A DNA stretch of 64,000 nucleotides from a virus. Taxonomy: Duplodnaviria > Caudoviricetes. The DNA lies in the IMG/VR virus record IMGVR_UViG_3300031993_000006, positions 1 through 64,000 of that record. The stretch is one strand, 5' to 3'. Positions 1 to 40,869 of the stretch are shown piece after piece. Position 1 is the first letter of the stretch; each line of letters opens with the position of its first letter. Below the pieces are notes generated by a model that did no database searches, had not been told where the DNA came from, and saw nothing but the letters and a program-made list of their open reading frames with translations. The translations under genes were made by a program, and so were the position numbers.

Positions 1-868
1 CCCATCCTGTATCGTGCTCGGACTTGGCAAGGTCGCCTTCGGCGACCTGCCTTACATCCAGGTCCTCGACCGCAATCGTTTGGTTCTCGCGAATGAGTCG
101 GGTAGACAGCTTGTGGAGGAAATCCTTGCGTTGGCTAGCAATATGCTCGTGTAAGCGGGCGATGCGCTTGCGCAGCGCCTCGCGACGAGATGAATTGCTT
201 GTTTTCTTTGAAAAAGCTTTCTGGAGGACAGCGAGGCGGTCCTCGGCATGTTTCATATAGCGAGGGTTGGCGACGGCTTCGCCGTCGCTCGTCACGCAGA
301 AGTCCTTTATTCCGATGTCGATGCCTACGGCATAATCGGATTTTGTAAGCGCCTTTGGCGCTTCCTCCTCGACCAGTATCGAGGCATAGAACTTTCCCGA
401 GTGCGACCGGCTTACGGTCGCATGCTTGATGTTCTTTCCGGACCAGTCAATGTTCCTATAGTCCTTGAACTTGACGAAGCCGATTTTCGGCAGGCGCAGC
501 CTGCCGTTTTCGATTCGGATATTTTCCTTTGTCCGATAAGTGGTATAGGAGTCCCGGTCGTGATGCTTGGCCTTAAACTTCGGAAGCCCGACTCCATCGG
601 CCTTGCGTTCAAAGAAGTTCTTGAACGCCATATTCAGGTTAAGCACCTCGCCCGTGAGGGCGTTGCTGTCAACTTCCTTAAGGAACGGAAACTCGGCATA
701 GTAGTCGGTCGGCTTCGTCCGGCACTGTGTACCGGTTGCCTCGTAAGACTTCACACGAGCTTCAAGCATGCAGTTATATACCTTGCGGCAGCAGCCGAAG
801 GTCTTGCCTAGCAAGACCGCCTGCTGCCGGCTAGGATATAGCCTGATGTTGTATGCCCGTTGAAACAT
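1..868 (-). CDS. tnpB: TnpB RNA-guided endonuclease, 3' end truncated by window edge (not in ORF track)
   Basis: Hand translation from ATG 868 is open to the edge: [16 protein letters not shown]...VGIDIGIKDF...IAVEDLDV. It is closely similar to 38973-40145. Confidence 0.93.
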   Translation of the reverse strand, partial: MFQRAYNIRLYPSRQQAVLLGKTFGCCRKVYNCMLEARVKSYEATGTQCRTKPTDYYAEFPFLKEVDSNALTGEVLNLNMAFKNFFERKADGVGLPKFKAKHHDRDSYTTYRTKENIRIENGRLRLPKIGFVKFKDYRNIDWSGKNIKHATVSRSHSGKFYASILVEEEAPKALTKSDYAVGIDIGIKDFCVTSDGEAVANPRYMKHAEDRLAVLQKAFSKKTSNSSRREALRKRIARLHEHIASQRKDFLHKLSTRLIRENQTIAVEDLDVRQVAEGDLAKSEHDTGW

Positions 869-955
869 GTCTTAAATATACTCCATTTTAACAGTTTATT
901 AAAGGGGCTTTCATCTCACCGCCTAAAAGGCGGTGAGTTTTCCCGCCACTATACT
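1..955 (-). mobile_element. IS200/IS605-family TnpB-only (IS1341-type) element, copy 1; right part runs off the window
   Basis: Left-end hairpin CTCACCGCC-TTTTA-GGCGGTGAG (915-937, read on minus) is preceded by guide AAAA. Target motif TTTAT at 956-960 (minus). The end is nearly identical to 38886-38972. Confidence 0.9.
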
Positions 956-1194: not shown

Positions 1195-1802
1195 TCGGAA
1201 TCTTCCGGCGCCGAGTAGACTACCGGTTCCGGTCCATTGTCCCCAAAGATATCGTCGTTATCGCCCTCGTCGGATTCAACGGGGGCGTTTCCTATTGTAA
1301 AGGACTCGCATTCCTTGAGGATAATCTTGAATGGCTTCGGCTTCTTGCCGGAAACAGTTTCTTCCTTCTTGTTGAGGAAGCAGCGGCAGAACTTGTCGTC
1401 GAAATCGTCGCCATTCTTGACAAAGGTGAATGAAGCAACGCGGTCGTCGCCGACACGCTTGAACTCGATTGCGGTAAGCAGCGCCTTAAATACGATGCCT
1501 GGCTCGTCCGTATGGATGTCGTGGCCGAAGTCGACATCGAAGTAGATGCCGTAATCGCGCATATCGAGCTTGATTGTCCAATACCCGTCGTCGCCCGGGA
1601 TAAGATTTTCAAAGTTCTGAAGCTTTGTCACCAAACCGTGGGTCGCCCACTTGGAAAATTCGCGGGCGATGCCGTCGATTTCGCTGTCATTGGTATTGCC
1701 GAATGTCTTTACCTGAAACTGGCGCACTTCGCCATTCTTGGTCCCGAACTTAGTAAGTCCGCCCATAAAGTCGAGGTTAATAGCACCTTCTTTAGATTTC
1801 AT
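1191..1802 (-). CDS. Hypothetical protein with acidic tail
   Basis: 203-aa ORF with GAGG RBS and TTGCTATATTTG box upstream. Confidence 0.8.
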   Translation of the reverse strand: MKSKEGAINLDFMGGLTKFGTKNGEVRQFQVKTFGNTNDSEIDGIAREFSKWATHGLVTKLQNFENLIPGDDGYWTIKLDMRDYGIYFDVDFGHDIHTDEPGIVFKALLTAIEFKRVGDDRVASFTFVKNGDDFDDKFCRCFLNKKEETVSGKKPKPFKIILKECESFTIGNAPVESDEGDNDDIFGDNGPEPVVYSAPEDSD

Positions 1803-1836
1803 AGGTTCCTCTGGGTTAAATTGTACATTAACAGTT

Positions 1837-1854
1837 CAAATATAGCAATAAACT
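1837..1854. promoter_or_regulatory. Fused divergent promoter CAAATATAGCAATAAACT (early box on minus, late box on plus)
   Basis: Identical 18-mer at 32968-32985; both lie between divergent genes. Confidence 0.7.
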
Positions 1855-1874
1855 ACGGATAACGAGGTATCAAT

Positions 1875-2426
1875 ATGCCACAAAATAATGCACTTTTAAA
1901 ATTTTCAAAAGAAATGACCCAGTATGACCCGTTGCTCCAGGAGCGCGTAGAGGGCCTTTACCATAAATTCTTCGAGGGAACGGGTACGCTGACGGCACTT
2001 GATAACCTCCGCAGCGAAGTCGGCGACAACAAGTTGGAGACAGAAGGCGACGGCGTATTCGGCCTAGCAAATGCACAGGGTTACAACGACGGACTGACCC
2101 CGAAAGAAACCATTGACGACAAAATCAACCAGGGTATAGAAAACGGTAACCTGGGCGACTTCGGAACAGCAATCGCAACCGAACAGCCACCGACCGAAAA
2201 CGACCTCGGCCTTGGCGGATTTGAAACCCAGCCGGCACCGCCGCCTGATATGACCAATGGGCCGGTACCGCCGCCTGTAGATGAACCTTTTGACGACAGC
2301 ATGTTCGGTGACAACGGTTCCGCCAGCGACCTCGGCCTCGACGGTCTCGATGACGAGCTCCCGGAAGATAAGCCTGTAAACGGCGGCACGGTAGACCCGA
2401 ACGCAAAAACGGCAGACCAATTCTAA
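1875..2426 (+). CDS. Acidic late protein, probable head-internal protein
   Basis: Late promoter and GAGG RBS. N-terminal motif shared with 32993-33346; FFE-type putative cleavage site. Confidence 0.7.
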   Translation: MPQNNALLKFSKEMTQYDPLLQERVEGLYHKFFEGTGTLTALDNLRSEVGDNKLETEGDGVFGLANAQGYNDGLTPKETIDDKINQGIENGNLGDFGTAIATEQPPTENDLGLGGFETQPAPPPDMTNGPVPPPVDEPFDDSMFGDNGSASDLGLDGLDDELPEDKPVNGGTVDPNAKTADQF

Positions 2427-2446
2427 CAAATTTAAACTTAATCATC

Positions 2447-2474
2447 AAAAAGGCCGCCCTTTAGGCGGTCTTTT
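2447..2474. terminator. Bidirectional intrinsic terminator
   Basis: AAAAAGGCCGCC-CTTTA-GGCGGTCTTTT between convergent genes. Confidence 0.8.
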
Positions 2475-3665
2475 CTAATTCGGTTTGATAGTCGGATTGT
2501 ACTTTGCTCTCTCGCGCGTCTCCTTGCGCTTCTCCGCCTTGGCTATATCGTTGGCCACGCGGTGAGATTCCTTGTCCCTAATACGGAGCTTCTTGATTAC
2601 GGCCTGCCGGATTTCCTTGTTGTACTCGCGGCGCTGGTCAGAAACATTACCTTCGCGAACAAACTTCTCTATATCGCCGATTACCTTGCCTACCTTGATT
2701 TCTTCATCGTTCAAGGTATTCAATGCGGTAAGACGGGCGGTAGACTGTTCACGGATTCCCTTGACCTTTTCGTCGATGGTATCCCATACGCCATACAGTG
2801 ATGCGAAGTTGTCTGTAATGTAGCTAAGCAAGCCCCTTGCCGACATCGGGTTCCGGTTGACATTGCCACTAGGAATCGTACGGTCCGCCTTCCACGCCTT
2901 GCCCTCGACATCAACCGGCTCGATACTGAACCGGCCATCGGCGCCGATACGAACAAGCGTCATGTGTTCGGCATTTGCCGCCCACGCGATGCACTTGCGG
3001 CGGTTCACCCCGTTATCGTCAAAGCCAAGGCTGACCGTTTCGGGACACTGGAACACCACTCCCCAGAAATAGCCGTCGGTATCCTTCGGAGTAACCTCGC
3101 CCAACTTGGATACATACATATATCCGTTACGGCGGCCACCGACTTCTTCCGGCTTGGAGTCCGTAGAAATCTTCCAGAACGCATCAAGATTCGGGGCACC
3201 GTGGTAAACCTGCTCGCTGACAATCTGACGCGCTTCCACTTCGGACTGCATCATGTCGATATACCAGCACTCGTCATCCTCGGCCTTCGGGGAATCGGTA
3301 CGATAGAACAAGTTGAGCGTACCGTTGACGAACTCGAGCCAGTCCTTGTCGGTATCATTCTGAAAATCATATGATTCGAACCACTGCTGGTACTTCTGCT
3401 GGGCTTCAGTAGGGAGCTGGACAACTCGGAACATATTGCGGAACTGATACGGGGTATACCCGCTTTCCTGGCACTTCTTCATAATCCAGAAGTCAAGAAT
3501 GATGTCCTTATGGGACTTCCAGGTGATTCCGTCGTTAATGTAGTTGATGAGACGGATGCCGGCAATTTTCCTCGCCTTCATTTCCAGCAGGATAGACTCT
3601 TCAAGAACGACAGGCTGTGCGCTGTGTCCTTTCAGCATATCTACAGTGTTCAGAAGGATACCCAT
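2475..3665 (-). CDS. Hypothetical late protein with coiled-coil C-terminus
   Basis: 396-aa ORF with ATAAACT at 3684-3690 (minus) and N-terminal VLEESILLE. Confidence 0.8.
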   Translation of the reverse strand: MGILLNTVDMLKGHSAQPVVLEESILLEMKARKIAGIRLINYINDGITWKSHKDIILDFWIMKKCQESGYTPYQFRNMFRVVQLPTEAQQKYQQWFESYDFQNDTDKDWLEFVNGTLNLFYRTDSPKAEDDECWYIDMMQSEVEARQIVSEQVYHGAPNLDAFWKISTDSKPEEVGGRRNGYMYVSKLGEVTPKDTDGYFWGVVFQCPETVSLGFDDNGVNRRKCIAWAANAEHMTLVRIGADGRFSIEPVDVEGKAWKADRTIPSGNVNRNPMSARGLLSYITDNFASLYGVWDTIDEKVKGIREQSTARLTALNTLNDEEIKVGKVIGDIEKFVREGNVSDQRREYNKEIRQAVIKKLRIRDKESHRVANDIAKAEKRKETRERAKYNPTIKPN

Positions 3666-32967: not shown

Positions 32968-32985
32968 CAAATATAGCAATAAACT
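32968..32985. promoter_or_regulatory. Fused divergent promoter CAAATATAGCAATAAACT
   Basis: Identical to 1837-1854. Confidence 0.7.
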
Positions 32986-35176: not shown

Positions 35177-38110
35177 TTAGATAAATTCAAGCATTGCGTC
35201 AGTTTCGTCATACTCGAGGTCTTCCGGCCATCCGACAGCCTTGAACAGACGCCCGAGAATGTTGGACACTGACTTTTCCCACTGGTCGTTCCAGTCCACA
35301 TAGAACAGCTCGAACAGGCGCTCCGGGCATTCCTCGCCGGTGTAGCACATGATTGTCACATCATATTCATTCTCGGCAACCTTAATGAACTTCATCTTCT
35401 CGCCGGCGGCGATAGGTTCATAGGTACTCTGAGACAGAACCGGGTCAGTATCGATAAGGTAGTTCCAGACGGAAGCCGCACGGCGACGGAAGTCAAGCTT
35501 CGCGTATTCCTCACGCGGCAAACGGCACTGAAGAGGATACGGAATCGGCTCTTCCTTCATGCCGGACGGAATGGAAATATACGAATACTTGTGCTTATCG
35601 ACCGCCTCGAAAAATTCCTTCTTGATTTCAAGAACACGGGAGCGGACGACTTCCTTGTCCATCGTACGGAGCATCAGCTTGACGGTATCCATCATGCGCT
35701 CGCGGCTGAACATCGTGGTAGAGCTTCGGACAATTTCGAGACCCGTAACGGCGAAGTCCGGGGTAATCTCGAGGGTACCGGTCTTGATAATCTTACCGGT
35801 CTCGTCCTTCACAGGTTCCTTGTCGAGATACACGATGTCTTCGTTGGATTCCACTTCGCAGATGTACTTCTTCTTGGCAGTGACGATTGCCTTGTAGATG
35901 CACTTTTCACGCTTCAGGAAGAGTTCGTTCGTAAGGTATCCCCACCGGGTAGCATACGAAAGCATGAACTCGTCGAGCTTCTCCTCGAGAATCACGGCGT
36001 CCATAATGCGGCAGAAGTCGGTGATGCGGTAGCGGTTATAGATGATTCGGTAACCGTCACCCCACACAATTCCATCGTAGAACATAATCTTGACCTTGGT
36101 GAGGCCGCTCTTCTTGTCCACCGCGCGGTTTTCCGGGTCATGCCAGGTGGAATGCGCATACTTGTTGCACATACGGTTGAAGCACTTACGGGACTCGAGG
36201 TCCTCCTCGTCGGTCTTACCGAACGCATAGCGCTCGACCTGCTCGTGACCCTTGAACACGATGACCTCGGTACCGGTACCCTGCTTCTGGCGGAACTGTT
36301 CAAAGAGGTCGCCGACCTTGCAGTAGAACGAGTCGGTATCGCCGTGTGACATTCTCTTGTACAGAAGCTGCCCATCTTCATCCTCGGTAGTCCCGAGGAA
36401 TTCCGGGTTGATTGTCGGGCTGTAACCGAATGCGTTGATAAAGCGCGGGTCGGTGGCGACTTCCTCGTTGAGATACTTGGCAAGCTGCTCGATGGTGTAC
36501 TTGATGAGGTTTCTTCCGTAAGCCGTAATAGATGCGGCGTTGTCCACATCGTACAATGGGAAGAAGTTGGAACCGAGAAGACCGTATAGCGAGTTACCGA
36601 GGACCTTGTAGACCTTCTGCATCATATCGTAGATGGCAGTCATCTCGTGGTCGCCCGCCTTCTTGGCAGCCTTCATCTTGTTCTTGAGGCTTGCACGGCC
36701 ATCGAAGAGTAAACGGGTAACCTGCGGAACGATACCTTCCTTGTCCTTGCGGAAATACACCTTGTAACGGCCATTGTGGTCCCACGGGCTCTCGATGAGG
36801 TACTTCCTCTCCTCCTCGGTAAGCACATAGTCAATCGGCTTGGTGACCTTGACTTCCGGAGAAGTATTGAAGGTCATCATAATTGACGGATATAGCGAAC
36901 GGTAGTCGTAGGACACGAGCCAAGTGTAGAAGCCCGGGATTGAATAAACGAATGCACCTGGGTATTCTTCCTTGGACTGTTCGCGGAATGCCGGGAACAC
37001 AAGGTTATGCTGATGCAGGTGGTTCATCACGAACCCGACGAGCATCTTCTTGCTTTCAAAAACAAACGAGAACGGAACATGGGCTTCCGAAGCAGCGGTC
37101 ACACAGAGCTGGAACATCCGCTCGTGCATCTCGATGAGCTTCAAAAGGCGCACGTCCTGCCAGTTATACTTGATGAAGAGAGTCCAATCAGTGCGCCAGG
37201 TCTGGTAACCGTCCTTCAACGGCTCCTTGTGCTCACCGGTAACCTTGCCACCAATGTAGTCAAGCTTGTAGGACGGTTCTTCGGAGAATGTATACTTGCG
37301 ATAGAGGGCGAGGAAATCGATAACTTCCGTTCCGGCAATCATCAGGCAGTCTTCGCGTTCGTCCCACCACGCCTTCTTGAACTGGGCCGGGAGGCGGGAC
37401 ATAAGGTTGAGCGGGACGCCGAGCTTCTCCGCGCGGTTCACCATGTAGGTGGTATCGTACGAGAAGTTCCAACCGGAAAGAATGGCGACTTCATTACTAC
37501 CAATCTCGGTAAACAACCGGCGCAGGAGGTCCGCCTCGTCCGAGCAGAGAACATAGACAGCATTTTCCTTTGCCATCTCGTCCTTGAGGGACTGGTCGAT
37601 GTCCTGTCCGACACCGTATGTGATGTAATTGTCAGTCGCCGAAAAATAAATCGTTACACAGTTAATCGGGTATTCGGCACGGTGGGCTACGGGGAATCTT
37701 CCGGTAGTAGCCACCTCAATATCAAGGAAGCAGATATTGATTTTCTTCATGTCCGGCTTGAGCATCCCGGACTTCGCGTAGTGCTTCTGGAGGAACCTTG
37801 CACGGGGGTCGATGTCGATTTCGGCCAGGTGGTTCTGTGGGCCGCGCGCATCGTTGTATATCTTTCGTTCGGCTGTCGTATGCCGCTGGACGGCATACAT
37901 CTCTCGACCGTAGATATCCTTCATGCCACAAGGGACTGCGCCGAGTTCTCCCCGGTTCGGGGTATAGAATGTGTTGACGATGCGAGTCTGCTCCATCGTT
38001 CCGTCATCGTACCACAGGAACAGGTTGTCAGTATCCCTGTCGTGATAGATGGCCGACCACATTCGAGTCTCGGCGGTCTTGTCCGCCGGGCGTGTTATCG
38101 TAGCTTCCAT
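35177..38110 (-). CDS. Family B DNA polymerase (gp43-like)
   Basis: [14 protein letters not shown]...[23 protein letters not shown]. Confidence 0.97.
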
Positions 38111-38122
38111 AGGTTCTTATTG

Positions 38123-38133
38123 AAATATAGCAA
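38123..38133 (-). promoter_or_regulatory. TTGCTATATTT early/host-type promoter box (representative copy)
   Basis: Exact 11-mer at 1838, 18300, 23260, 32969, 34332, 38123, 47804, 49793 and 54003, each just upstream of a non-virion gene. Confidence 0.8.
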
Positions 38134-38236: not shown

Positions 38237-38842
38237 TTACTTTGAGGTTGTTTTAATCTTAAAGTGCTTGTCGATACGGGTGCAAACCGCTTCGGCAGCA
38301 TCCTCAGTCTTCTTGTCTACCGCGAGGCTCCGCATAAAACCCTTGAGAACTTCCGCCTTGCGCTGATTCTTGGACTCCTCGCTGAACTTCTTGTTGCTCT
38401 CGGCCTTAGACTGGCTAGCCTTTTCGGCACTCTTTGCAGCAGCGTCGAAATTGCCGCTCTTCGGCTTCGGTGCCTTCTTGGATTCCTCAGTGTTATCCTC
38501 GACGACCACCTTGGTCACCTGGCCCTTTTCCTTCTTTTCGGTCACGGTGTCGTTTTCCGTTTCCTGCTTGCTGGAAGCCTTGGTAGCCTTGATGATTTCA
38601 TCGGTATTGTTGTTGCCCTTGGTAAGGTCCGGATTGGAAGCCGTCTTTGCCTTGCCGACTTTCTTGGAATCGGTCGACCACTTGTTAAGGTCTACCTTAG
38701 TACCTTCGAAGAAGGTGGTGGACTCTACAATAGGCTTGGCAACGCGGACTTCATTGTACGGACGCTGTTCCACAATAGGCTGGTTAGCGATGCTTTCGAA
38801 AAGCTGCTTCACTCTATCTTCTTCTTCGATACTGTATGCCAT
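38237..38842 (-). CDS. Lys/Glu-rich late protein, probable head-internal protein
   Basis: TATAAACT at 38879-38886 (minus); LFE, IVE and FFE motifs. Confidence 0.7.
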   Translation of the reverse strand: MAYSIEEEDRVKQLFESIANQPIVEQRPYNEVRVAKPIVESTTFFEGTKVDLNKWSTDSKKVGKAKTASNPDLTKGNNNTDEIIKATKASSKQETENDTVTEKKEKGQVTKVVVEDNTEESKKAPKPKSGNFDAAAKSAEKASQSKAESNKKFSEESKNQRKAEVLKGFMRSLAVDKKTEDAAEAVCTRIDKHFKIKTTSK

Positions 38843-38885
38843 ATTCTATACCATCCAACGGATTAAGATTTACCGGTAAGTTTAT

Positions 38886-40150
38886 ATTATAGTGACGGGA
38901 AAACTCACCGCCTTTTAGGCGGTGAGATGAAAGCTCTTTTCATAAACTATTAAAATAGAGTATATTTGAGATATGTTTCAACGGGCATACCACATCCGGC
39001 TATATCCAAGCCGGCAGCAGACGGTCTTGCTAGGCAAGACATTCGGCTGTTGCCGCAAAGTGTACAACTGCATGCTGGACGCTCGTTTGAAGTCGTATGA
39101 GTCGACCGGCACACAGTGCCGGACGAAACCTACCGACTACTATGCCGAGTTTCCGTTCCTTAAAGAAGTTGACAGCAACGCCCTCACGGGTGAGGTGCTC
39201 AACCTGAACGCGGCATTCAAGAACTTTTTCGAACGTAAGGCCGATGGAGTCGGGCTTCCGAAGTTCAAGGCTAAACATCACGACCGCGATTCTTATACCA
39301 CTTATCGGACAAAAGAAAATATCCGAATCGAGAACGGCAGGCTGCGCCTGCCGAAAATCGGCTTCGTCAAGTTCAAGGATTATAAGAATATCGACTGGAG
39401 CGAGAAAGATATCAAGCACGCGACCGTAAGCCGGTCGCGTTCGGGAAAGTTCTACGCCTCGATACTGGTTGAAGAGGAAGCGCCGAAGGCGCTTCCAAAA
39501 TCCGATTATTCCGTAGGCGTCGACCTCGGAATCAAGGATTTCTGCGTGACGAGCGACGGTGAAGCCGTCGCCAACCCACGCTATATGAAACAGGCTGAGG
39601 ACCGCCTAGCGGTCCTCCAGAAAGCGTTTTCAAAGAAAAATGGCAAGTCTGCTCGTCGCGAGTCGCTGCGCAAGCGCATCGCCCGCCTCCACGAGCACAT
39701 TGCTAGCCAACGCAAGGATTTTCTCCACAAGCTGTCCACCAGACTCATTCGCGAGAACCAAACGATTGCGGTCGAGAACCTGGATGTAAGGCAGGTCGCC
39801 GAAGGCGACCTTGCCAAGTCCGAGCACGATGCCGGATGGGGAATGTTCCTGAACATGCTTAAGTACAAGGCTGATTGGTATGGGAGGACCATCGTCCGTG
39901 TCGGACGATGGTTCCCTTCCTCCCAAATCTGCCACTGCTGCGGCTTCAGGAATGAAGTTGTTAAAGACTTGAATGTCCGGGAGTGGAAGTGTCCACAATG
40001 CGGCACTTCCCACGACAGGGACTTCAACGCCGCCATCAACATCCTTACCGAAGGTAAAAGAATTCTCGCCGCCGGAACGGCGGTTCAAGGCGCGGGCGCC
40101 CCTACGGGGCTAACGCGAAGCGCGCAGCTTTCAAGCTGCGCGTAGTTCAC
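38886..40150 (+). mobile_element. IS200/IS605-family TnpB-only element, copy 2 (complete)
   Basis: Target TTTAT at 38881-38885; left hairpin 38904-38926 with guide AAAA. Right hairpin CGCGCAGCT-TTCA-AGCTGCGCG (40121-40142) with guide GAAG and end TCAC (40147-40150), matching IS608-type guide/cleavage rules. Confidence 0.92.
38973..40145 (+). CDS. tnpB: TnpB RNA-guided endonuclease
   Basis: HTH_OrfB start, RuvC D (GVDLG), E (AVENL) and D ([10 protein letters not shown]), and zinc ribbon CHCC...CPQC. Confidence 0.97.
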
Positions 40151-40170
40151 ATATCTCCGATATTTTTTGA
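40030..40170 (+). ncRNA. Predicted omegaRNA/reRNA; scaffold overlaps tnpB 3' end, guide about 40151-40170
   Basis: Established TnpB architecture and GC-rich stems at 40091-40142. The 5' boundary is approximate. Confidence 0.6.
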
Positions 40171-40221
40171 ACACCAACCGCGACCAGTATAAACTCCTGA
40201 AGTAAGAACACGGATAAAACT

Positions 40222-40869
40222 ATGGAACTCAACATACCCAAAGCCACGACAGCAAGCCACGAAGTCCCTATCTTCAACGATTTGGCAAAGGAAGCTAACC
40301 TCCCGGTCAGCGAAATAAAGGCACGATTCCGGAAAAAGATGCTCGAGCTTCACGAAAAAGCAATGGACGACCCTTCCATACTGAGTCTCGGCGGCGGACA
40401 TGACGAGCTCGTTGAAAAAGCGATTACCGAACTCCGTACGGAACTCCAGCACCCCGAAGAAACAAACAGCGATAACGACGAATACAGCCAACTGATGGGA
40501 TTCGACCCAAATGAACCTTCTCCCGTCGGAGACATCTTCGACGCGCCGAGTGGCGACGGCGGATTTGGCGGTGGAATCGGCGGTGGTGGCGGAGGCAGCT
40601 TTGGTGGCGGCGGTGGCGGACTTGGAAGCACCGGCGGCACCGGCGGCGGAATTGATAACCTTGACCTTGGATTCTCCGATGAAGGAATGGCTGCGGTCAA
40701 CAGCGTCGAAAACAACGAGAACAATGAATCGCTGGATGCCGGTAGCGTAAATGCGATATCCGAAACTGAACCGGGCGGCGCCGAACTGTCCGAAAATAAC
40801 GAAACGGAGTCCGACAAATCGCCGAACCCCGTTGAAAATTCAAGCGGTGATGACCTAGCTGAACTTTAA
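40222..40869 (+). CDS. Acidic Gly-rich late protein
   Basis: TATAAACT at 40188-40195; poly-Gly tract. Confidence 0.75.
   Translation: MELNIPKATTASHEVPIFNDLAKEANLPVSEIKARFRKKMLELHEKAMDDPSILSLGGGHDELVEKAITELRTELQHPEETNSDNDEYSQLMGFDPNEPSPVGDIFDAPSGDGGFGGGIGGGGGGSFGGGGGGLGSTGGTGGGIDNLDLGFSDEGMAAVNSVENNENNESLDAGSVNAISETEPGGAELSENNETESDKSPNPVENSSGDDLAEL

Follow-up and report, generated by a model that had tools for sequence, protein, structure and literature searches.

The TnpB elements and their insertion sites

The 64,000-nt stretch of DNA analyzed here (the window) represents the first 64 kb of a 259,974-bp viral record (IMG/VR IMGVR_UViG_3300031993_000006), whose completeness is estimated at 91%. 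It carries two copies of a TnpB element of the IS200/IS605 type, both of which begin immediately after the heptamer AGTTTAT, the reverse complement of ATAAACT, a promoter-like motif of the phage. Copy 2 (positions 38886-40150, plus strand) is a complete, tnpA-less element of 1,265 bp; its boundaries were derived from the divergence between copies and by analogy with an exact empty allele of copy 3. Its tnpB gene (38973-40145, plus strand) encodes 390 amino acids (aa), including a CxxC...CxxC zinc finger, and was identified through matches to Pfam and to the ISDra2 structure. Copy 1 (1-955, minus strand), 91% identical to copy 2 at the nucleotide level, retains the left end and the first 289 codons of tnpB, the remainder being lost at the contig start. 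The right end and guide of copy 1 are missing because the contig begins inside its tnpB; the assembly probably broke at the repeated element.

The target of copy 2 (AGTTTAT at 38879-38885, plus strand), which contains the presumed target-adjacent motif (TAM) TTTAT, is the complement of the ATAAACT promoter that would serve the adjoining 201-aa gene (38237-38842, minus strand). The first base of the element, an A at 38886, completes the octamer TATAAACT, read on the minus strand at 38879-38886. On the other side of the element, a second, divergent TATAAACT (40188-40195, plus strand) is located 26 nt ahead of the ATG of a 215-aa gene (40222-40869). At copy 1, ATAAACT occupies positions 956-962 of the plus strand (the element strand reads AGTTTAT), and the ATG of a 74-aa open reading frame (ORF; 970-1194) follows 7 nt on. 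A first-pass annotation of the window had described elements starting right after AGTTTAT, an octamer rebuilt by the first A of copy 2 and a site between two divergent motifs. All three descriptions are borne out: the junctions fall at 38886 in copy 2 and at 955/956 in copy 1, further copies begin in the same way, and empty relatives have the same divergent layout.

Outside the window, a third intact copy (copy 3) is present at genome positions 113813-115077 (minus strand). Copy 4 (about 162606-163880) follows TTTAG, has AAAC as its left-end guide and carries a broken tnpB frame (244 aa); the element separates the last codon of a 1,251-aa gene from the terminator of that gene, whose stop codon comes from the right end of the element. 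A protein-less mini element of ~190 bp (97213-97398, or L028:17213-17398; minus strand) has the same left and right ends as the window elements and stands directly after AGTTTAT, 7 nt ahead of the ATG of a large ORF. It contains an internal promoter-like pair (TTGACA-17-TAAACT) and an omega-RNA scaffold, with a terminator hairpin after its guide, and might supply a guide in trans to the intact TnpB copies. Two omega-RNA-like cassettes also have sigma70-like boxes upstream and a terminator downstream. One of them (about 251308-251430, or L036:11308-11430; minus strand) is degenerate, keeping a ...TTCAC end and a unique 16-20-nt flank; the other is found at about 130700-130870 (L030).

Further elements of the family were collected from IMG/VR and from contigs of rumen metagenome-assembled genomes (MAGs), including nine docked at (A/C)GTTTAT in related phage contigs. 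A census of IMG/VR by right-end pattern yielded no new full-length elements of this clade; the additional matches either belonged to mini elements of a different phage group, at other TTAT/TTAC sites, or were GC-rich and due to chance. No relative of this phage was detected among GenBank phages by blastn.

Fifteen elements have the AAAA-type left end of the window copies. Twelve are located after AGTTTAT, one after CGTTTAT and one after TTTTTTAT, and one degenerate cassette follows GGATTTAT. These insertions are independent, since the flanking genes and the right-flank guides differ in every element. All 13 elements at (A/C)GTTTAT (copies 1-3, the mini element and the nine related ones) face a divergent ORF of 74 to >495 aa, which begins 1-40 nt past the motif; the other two of the 15 do not. 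AGTTTAT accounts for 39% of the intergenic TTTAT sites (in this genome alone, with crude gene calls) and for 12% of all its TTTAT sites; the occurrence of 12 of 15 elements at AGTTTAT has a binomial P of 0.0015 versus the former background and of 3e-9 versus the latter. None of the non-TTTAT elements was found at a promoter edge: the L037 element lies just 3' of a stop codon, and that of a related genome, G002, occupies TTTAC, 21 nt upstream of a promoter motif. Promoters are favoured, not required, as insertion sites.

In another contig (L014, from G003; 1362-2677), a divergent motif pair with an element inside it stands ahead of a gene encoding a protein with a start resembling that of the 201-aa protein. 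The element adjoins the other promoter of the pair and has the opposite orientation relative to the 201-aa-like gene.

Empty alleles

The copy-2 locus is empty in three diverged relatives (L009, L010/L011 and G001), all of which keep the gene order: the 215-aa gene, the divergent motif pair, the 201-aa gene and the DNA polymerase gene. In these relatives, TATAAACT is located about 34-36 nt ahead of the orthologous 201-aa ATG (36 nt in L009 and L010, as in the window, and about 34 nt in G001). A DNA search for the neighbour of copy 3 in five related genomes found none, and a protein-based search then gave L065, an empty copy-3 site whose flanks are 95-96.5% identical over 400 nt and match at 100 of 100 positions on the promoter side. 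In L065, the sequences on either side of copy 3 are directly adjacent, no base having been gained or lost, and the junction falls exactly before ATAAACT. This exact joining fixes the boundaries of copy 3 and demonstrates insertion 3' of a specific motif without target-site duplication. Occupied and empty alleles are thus polymorphic among close relatives, and the motif is native to the site. The search for empty alleles proposed in the first-pass annotation was therefore productive at two loci. The flank of the L012 element had no match in this genome.

The possibility that AGTTTAT is brought along as part of the left end, donating an outward promoter to the neighbouring gene, can be given almost no credence. 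It would account for a motif beside almost every copy and for a left end whose first base is usually A, completing TATAAACT. However, in the empty alleles the spacing between the motif and the orthologous start is unchanged, the promoter side of L065 is identical throughout, and the base preceding AGTTTAT varies between copies. Excision of IS200/IS605 elements leaves no such motif as a footprint.

Element ends and the target rule

The left end of copy 2 exhibits the guide AAAA (38900-38903), followed by a subterminal hairpin in which 38904-38912 pairs with 38918-38926 (9 bp; the whole at 38900-38926, plus strand). At the right end, the guide GAAG (40117-40120) and a hairpin (40121-40142) precede the cleavage site TCAC (40147-40150), such that the element closes with ...TTCAC at 40150. 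About 21 elements were surveyed in this respect. The left-end guide/target pairs comprised AAAA/TTAT (15 elements), AAAC/TTAG (copy 4, L013, L020 and L037/L038), AAAT/TTAA (L063) and AAAG/TTAC (the G002 element), while the right-end guide/cleavage pairs were GAAG/TCAC or, in L019, L060 and L063, GAAA/TCAT. Because the left-end guide base covaries with the target across relatives, the target of the family reads as TTTA+N, in which N is set by a single base of the element; only TTTAT coincides with the promoter. Elements of the AAAA type, with TTTAT as target, form the most numerous class (15 of 21). The first-pass proposal that the ends obey IS608-type guide/cleavage pairing gains support from this covariation.

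The promoter-like motif ATAAACT and a second box

With about 90% of the genome coding, ATAAACT is present in 45 intergenic versus 11 coding copies. In 34 cases the motif is located 7-49 nt ahead of a called gene start in the correct orientation, and in 27 of these the distance is 18-36 nt. Among 45 aligned ATAAACT sites, none of the positions from -45 to -1 has more than 0.32 bits, and T occurs at -1 in 56%. In view of its placement before gene starts and the lack of upstream conservation, ATAAACT behaves like a -10-only promoter motif, (T)ATAAACT. The octamer TATAAACT occurs 7 times in the window versus 1.45 expected, a number reached in none of 100 shuffles, and is over-represented in five related phage records as well. 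The view of TATAAACT as the -10 box of a sigma70-type promoter (TTGAAC, 17 nt, TAAACT; 40165-40195) was rejected as a general rule, since the 45 aligned sites contain no -35 signal. The first-pass annotation had placed the target within the complement of a genuine promoter-like motif, in agreement with the intergenic bias, and had held that insertion leaves the promoter intact; the upstream edge contains no conserved base, so the promoter should indeed survive.

The motif is concentrated in the first 170 kb of the genome and precedes the tail sheath gene (29578, minus strand) and a baseplate wedge gene. Annotation of 20 motif-preceded genes with PHROG and Pfam produced three informative matches, i.e., these two and tnpB itself. 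A second, very uniform promoter-like box, of the TATATTTG type and usually preceded by TTGC, occurs in 32 copies genome-wide; all but a few lie 5-50 nt upstream of gene starts, with enrichment in the 180-260-kb part. One variant, TATATTTC (38114-38123), which has one mismatch to the TATATTTG consensus, is positioned 12 nt ahead of the DNA polymerase gene (35177-38110). This gene follows the ATAAACT-driven 201-aa gene, from which it is separated by a terminator-like hairpin and the TATATTTC box. Since one promoter class is found on replication genes and the other on virion genes, the label "late" for ATAAACT is plausible.

The -7 consensus of Bacteroidota promoters is TAnnTTTG, and the TATATTTG-type box fits it. 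Elements of 74% identity were observed on short contigs assigned to Prevotella and Fibrobacter MAGs from the rumen; together with the box type, these contigs hint at a host from the Fibrobacteres-Bacteroidetes group. At two positions in the window (1838-1854 and 32969-32985), AGTTTAT is fused to a TGCTATATTT box, forming divergent back-to-back promoters of both classes that share one base. Both sites are empty, and insertion there would split the second box.

TnpB, omega-RNA and signs of selection

The TnpB protein of copy 2 matched PF12323 (HTH_OrfB_IS605), PF01385 (OrfB_IS605) and PF07282 (Cas12f1-like_TNB), all above cut-off, as well as PHROG 506 (E 6e-124) and the ISDra2 TnpB structures 8EXA and 8H1J (E about 1e-85). 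Its RuvC triad, D184/E268/D350, aligned to D191/E278/D361 of ISDra2, and both CxxC pairs are present, which upholds the original assignment as an IS200/IS605 TnpB with an intact RuvC domain. In pairwise comparisons of copies 1, 2 and 3, synonymous divergence (dS) was 0.26-0.40 and the ratio of nonsynonymous to synonymous divergence (dN/dS) ~0.1, i.e., TnpB has evolved under purifying selection.

The 3' part of the omega-RNA scaffold and the right end occupy 40011-40150 (plus strand). An alignment of the last 140 nt of 15 copies, drawn from this and other phage contigs, predicted 25 pairs, of which 12 showed compensatory changes. The low dN/dS and the compensatory changes indicate that protein and omega-RNA are both under selection. 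No Rfam family matched the right end or omega-RNA. The presumed guide is the flank 3' of the right end (40151-40170, plus strand), where the flanks of all copies diverge exactly; joined to 38879-38885, it restores the empty target. By analogy with known TnpB systems, TTTAT is presumably the TAM. The putative promoter boxes of tnpB itself (38942-38968, plus strand), namely ATAAACT at 38942-38948 and TATATTTG at 38961-38968, 4 nt ahead of the ATG, are kept in all copies although adjacent bases vary; both box classes are enriched in intergenic DNA.

Guide matches, transposase source and other TnpB-like genes

No second target for any guide was detected within this genome, in a check that covered all guides except that of the third cassette. 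The guide of the 251-kb cassette, searched as TAM plus 13 nt, had one match in IMG/VR, which ended at base 14 and was judged to be due to chance.

A search for the Y1 transposase (PF01797) gave no match in the 260-kb, 91%-complete record. Since a Y1 tnpA is absent from both the elements and the record, the window elements are regarded as non-autonomous members of IS200/IS605. The closest relative of the phage, G002 (79% nucleotide identity in the polymerase gene), has an empty copy-2 site and contains a complete IS605-like element with a Y1 tnpA (L055, or G002:C1:91009-94368; 1412-3275), inserted at TTTAC. Its tnpA (1498-1899, minus strand) is accompanied by a divergent tnpB of 425 aa (1983-3257), apparently driven by TATAAACT. 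This tnpB is only 24% identical to the window tnpB, and the left and right ends are clearly homologous to those of the window elements. The AGTTTAT that precedes its tnpA is the internal promoter of the divergent tnpB, the target of the element being TTTAC. Mobilization in trans within the phage clade, with TnpA supplied from another element, is plausible.

The element of G001 (L012) is 92-93% identical to copy 2, as compared with 71% nucleotide identity between the DNA polymerase genes of the two phages. This discrepancy indicates that the TnpB element moves laterally between phage lineages.

Five more TnpB-like genes, belonging to other subfamilies (about 94.7-95.9, 145.8-147.5, 186.3-187.6, 195.3-196.6 and 225.2-226.4 kb), bring the number in this one phage to nine, and several of the five have ATAAACT or TATATTTG-type boxes of their own. 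The reading frame ahead of the gene at ~195 kb resembles, by eye, the C-terminus of a serine recombinase, making it an IS607-like candidate.

Probable accumulation at promoter edges and alternative explanations

The anatomy of the elements, their exact junctions, the native motif, the covariation of ends and target, the purifying selection on TnpB and the empty alleles are most readily joined in the following explanation, to which we assign a probability of roughly 0.7: tnpA-less IS200/IS605 TnpB elements have colonized a clade of very large rumen phages, where they accumulate at promoter edges (13 of 15). The element ends would be classical substrates of a Y1 transposase, AAAA directing insertion 3' of TTAT, with TTTAT shared by all copies. 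As TTTAT is contained in AGTTTAT, the complement of the promoter, insertion would take place at the upstream edge of the promoter, with the element facing away. Nothing is conserved upstream of the motif, so the promoter would continue to work, the site would be nearly neutral, and copies would gather at such sites. TnpA would come from elsewhere in trans, an autonomous element with the same type of ends being present in the closest relative, G002. TnpB and its omega-RNA would then cut the unoccupied allele, whose TAM lies inside the promoter and whose protospacer lies just upstream. Such cutting may favour retention of the element, or homing into co-infecting element-free phages, as in bacterial TnpB systems. 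That the empty allele is the cognate target follows by analogy with ISDra2 and with the published mechanism of retention and homing (PMC8612924, PMC10055086), and homing or competition can reasonably be inferred on the same grounds.

Several observations weigh against this explanation. The 39% background used for the enrichment has the limits given above. Two TTTAT-type elements, L061 and the degenerate cassette at ~251.3 kb, are located away from promoters, and in the same phages elements of the sister classes (targets TTTAG or TTTAA) are maintained at sites other than promoters, so promoter edges are not the sole sites tolerated. The enrichment at AGTTTAT foreseen in the first-pass annotation thus stands with regard to 12 of 15 elements, and gives way in 2 of the 15 and in the sister classes. 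A recognition rule of 4-5 nt leaves the near-invariant AG at -7/-6 unaccounted for. In addition, a search of IMG/VR for the exact TAM plus 12 nt of the copy-2 guide revealed no naive target, the guide of copy 2 is mismatched at about 9 of its 20 positions in the relatives of that locus, and the empty allele of L065 departs from the copy-3 guide at positions 8 and 10 (18 of 20 match). The source of TnpA, absent from the record, is a further point of this kind.

The AG bears on an explanation which is possible, if on the doubtful side, i.e., that TnpA and/or TnpB recognize a longer target, GTTTAT or AGTTTAT; the link with promoters would then be a by-product of shared sequence, in which neither promoter function nor selection plays a part. 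In the TTTAT class, 12 of the 15 elements have A at -7 and 13 have G at -6; moreover, 41 of the 46 intergenic GTTTAT sites are AGTTTAT, so a 6-nt target would give the same pattern. In the TTTAG class, on the other hand, position -6 (A/A/C/A) and position -7 (T/T/G/A) both vary, indicative of a 5-nt core in the same family, and neither L061 nor the 251-kb cassette has the G next to its TTTAT. In ISDra2, the nearest relative with a solved structure, the TAM is 5 nt long (PMC8612924). Owing to the variation in the TTTAG class, the near-invariant AG is better explained by the sites at which elements land or survive than by a longer recognition sequence.

A bolder proposal, close to that of the first-pass annotation and somewhat harder to accept than a longer target, sees an evolved, promoter-anchored weapon of homing or competition, its TAM placed in an indispensable promoter so that element-free competitors are cut during co-infection. 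An intact TnpB under purifying selection, a conserved omega-RNA, a crossing of phage lineages by the element (92-93% identical in a phage with a 71%-identical DNA polymerase gene), occupied/empty polymorphism between 95-96% identical genomes and the numerical predominance of TTTAT-type elements (15 of 21) would all be expected of such a system. Only the TAM, at 5-7 nt, is constrained by the promoter, however, whereas the 16-20-nt protospacer falls in unconserved sequence and is already different in the close empty allele and in all the diverged ones; no exact naive target was found in IMG/VR, and sister classes with non-promoter targets (L013, L037) have an equally intact TnpB. The annotation had reasoned that competitors could not easily mutate the site. 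This is true of the TAM, which is locked in the promoter, and fails for the protospacer, which is unconstrained and differs in the L065 allele, so escape by mutation would be easy. It is very unlikely that the elements are domesticated regulators of the TldR kind, in which TnpB and guide bind beside promoters and tune phage transcription without cutting. The guides do adjoin promoters, the genome contains, at other places, omega-RNA cassettes that encode no protein and have a promoter and a terminator of their own, and phage-encoded TldR proteins have been published (PMC10705468). Yet TldR is nuclease-dead, while the RuvC triad and zinc finger are intact here, and the resident target is split by the element, with no second guide match in the genome.

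Returning to accumulation at promoter edges, we put forward, as a tentative extension, that the AAAA sub-lineage has become specialized on the promoter core of its host phage, with harmless insertion and with tnpB driven by a promoter of the same type, and may act as an RNA-guided gene drive among co-infecting giant phages, the cassettes borrowing TnpB in trans. The parts of such a system are known: IS200/IS605 ends, ISDra2-like TnpB, omega-RNA and the concept of homing, including that into co-infecting phages (PMC13565253). Within the literature searched, no paper was found that links an IS605/TnpB target with a phage promoter. The targets of IS200/IS605 elements and the TAMs of TnpB are usually treated as arbitrary words; here, the word would be the promoter core of the host phage. 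Such a target would offer dozens of harmless landing pads in a 90%-coding genome and would place the TAM in sequence that the phage must keep. These phages provide a natural setting for TnpB homing between viruses, for the spread of selfish RNA-guided nucleases across phage lineages, and for the manner in which one guide base changes the target of a transposon, the four TTTA+N versions all being found side by side. They also supply a compact TnpB resembling that of ISDra2, for which TTTAT is the predicted TAM, and a candidate promoter code for rumen jumbo phages of an uncultured clade.

Comparison with known systems

In terms of the nuclease, the closest counterpart is TnpB with its omega-RNA from ISDra2 of Deinococcus radiodurans (PMC8612924), the structures of which (8EXA/8H1J) are available (PMC10097598). 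The two share the order of domains, the RuvC D/E/D residues and the zinc finger (E about 1e-85), an omega-RNA that shares sequence with the 3' end of tnpB and continues into the flank, and insertion 3' of a 5-nt AT-rich motif. That motif is TTTAT here, in contrast to TTGAT in ISDra2, and neither the element nor the phage record contains tnpA. Unlike ISDra2, the window elements are phage-borne, have phage-type promoter boxes for tnpB and target what appears to be the core of a phage promoter.

The ends are comparable to those of IS608 of Helicobacter pylori, in which, according to work attributed to Barabas et al. in 2008, a left-end AAAG reportedly goes together with TTAC and a right-end GAAT with TCAA. 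As in that rule, the cleavage site can be predicted from the tetranucleotide at the foot of each subterminal hairpin, the target is not duplicated, and the fourth guide base covaries, in four versions at the left end and two at the right. The extra invariant T (TTTA+N) and the near-invariant A/G at -7/-6 in the TTTAT class set the present family apart.

T4-type late promoters consist of TATAAATA and have no -35 element. ATAAACT resembles them as a short AT-rich, -10-only signal before structural genes, with a different motif sequence; unlike the T4 late system, no gp55-like or sigma70-region-2 protein was found in this genome. The free-standing homing endonuclease genes of T-even phages (PMC13565253, section 3.2) are likewise selfish nuclease genes located between phage genes and driven by phage promoters, but the nuclease of the window elements would be RNA-guided and is bounded by transposon ends.

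Phage-encoded TldR proteins, nuclease-dead TnpB repressors that bind promoters (PMC10705468), are a further relative, in that a phage TnpB homologue has an RNA-guided target at a promoter. The RuvC residues lost in TldR are intact in copy 2, its presumed guide is the transposon flank, not a host promoter, and the transposon ends are retained.

Homing and retention driven by TnpB have been published for bacterial IS605 elements (Meers et al., PMC10055086; PMC10690162), and a review lists homing into co-infecting phages as a concept (PMC13565253, Table 1). In common with the TnpB/IscB systems, the TAM would correspond to the target at the left flank and the guide to the right flank; only the empty allele would contain the cognate target. 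In contrast to the bacterial cases, the elements reside in a giant phage of lytic type, where donor and empty allele would be co-infecting genomes, and the TAM is embedded in a promoter.

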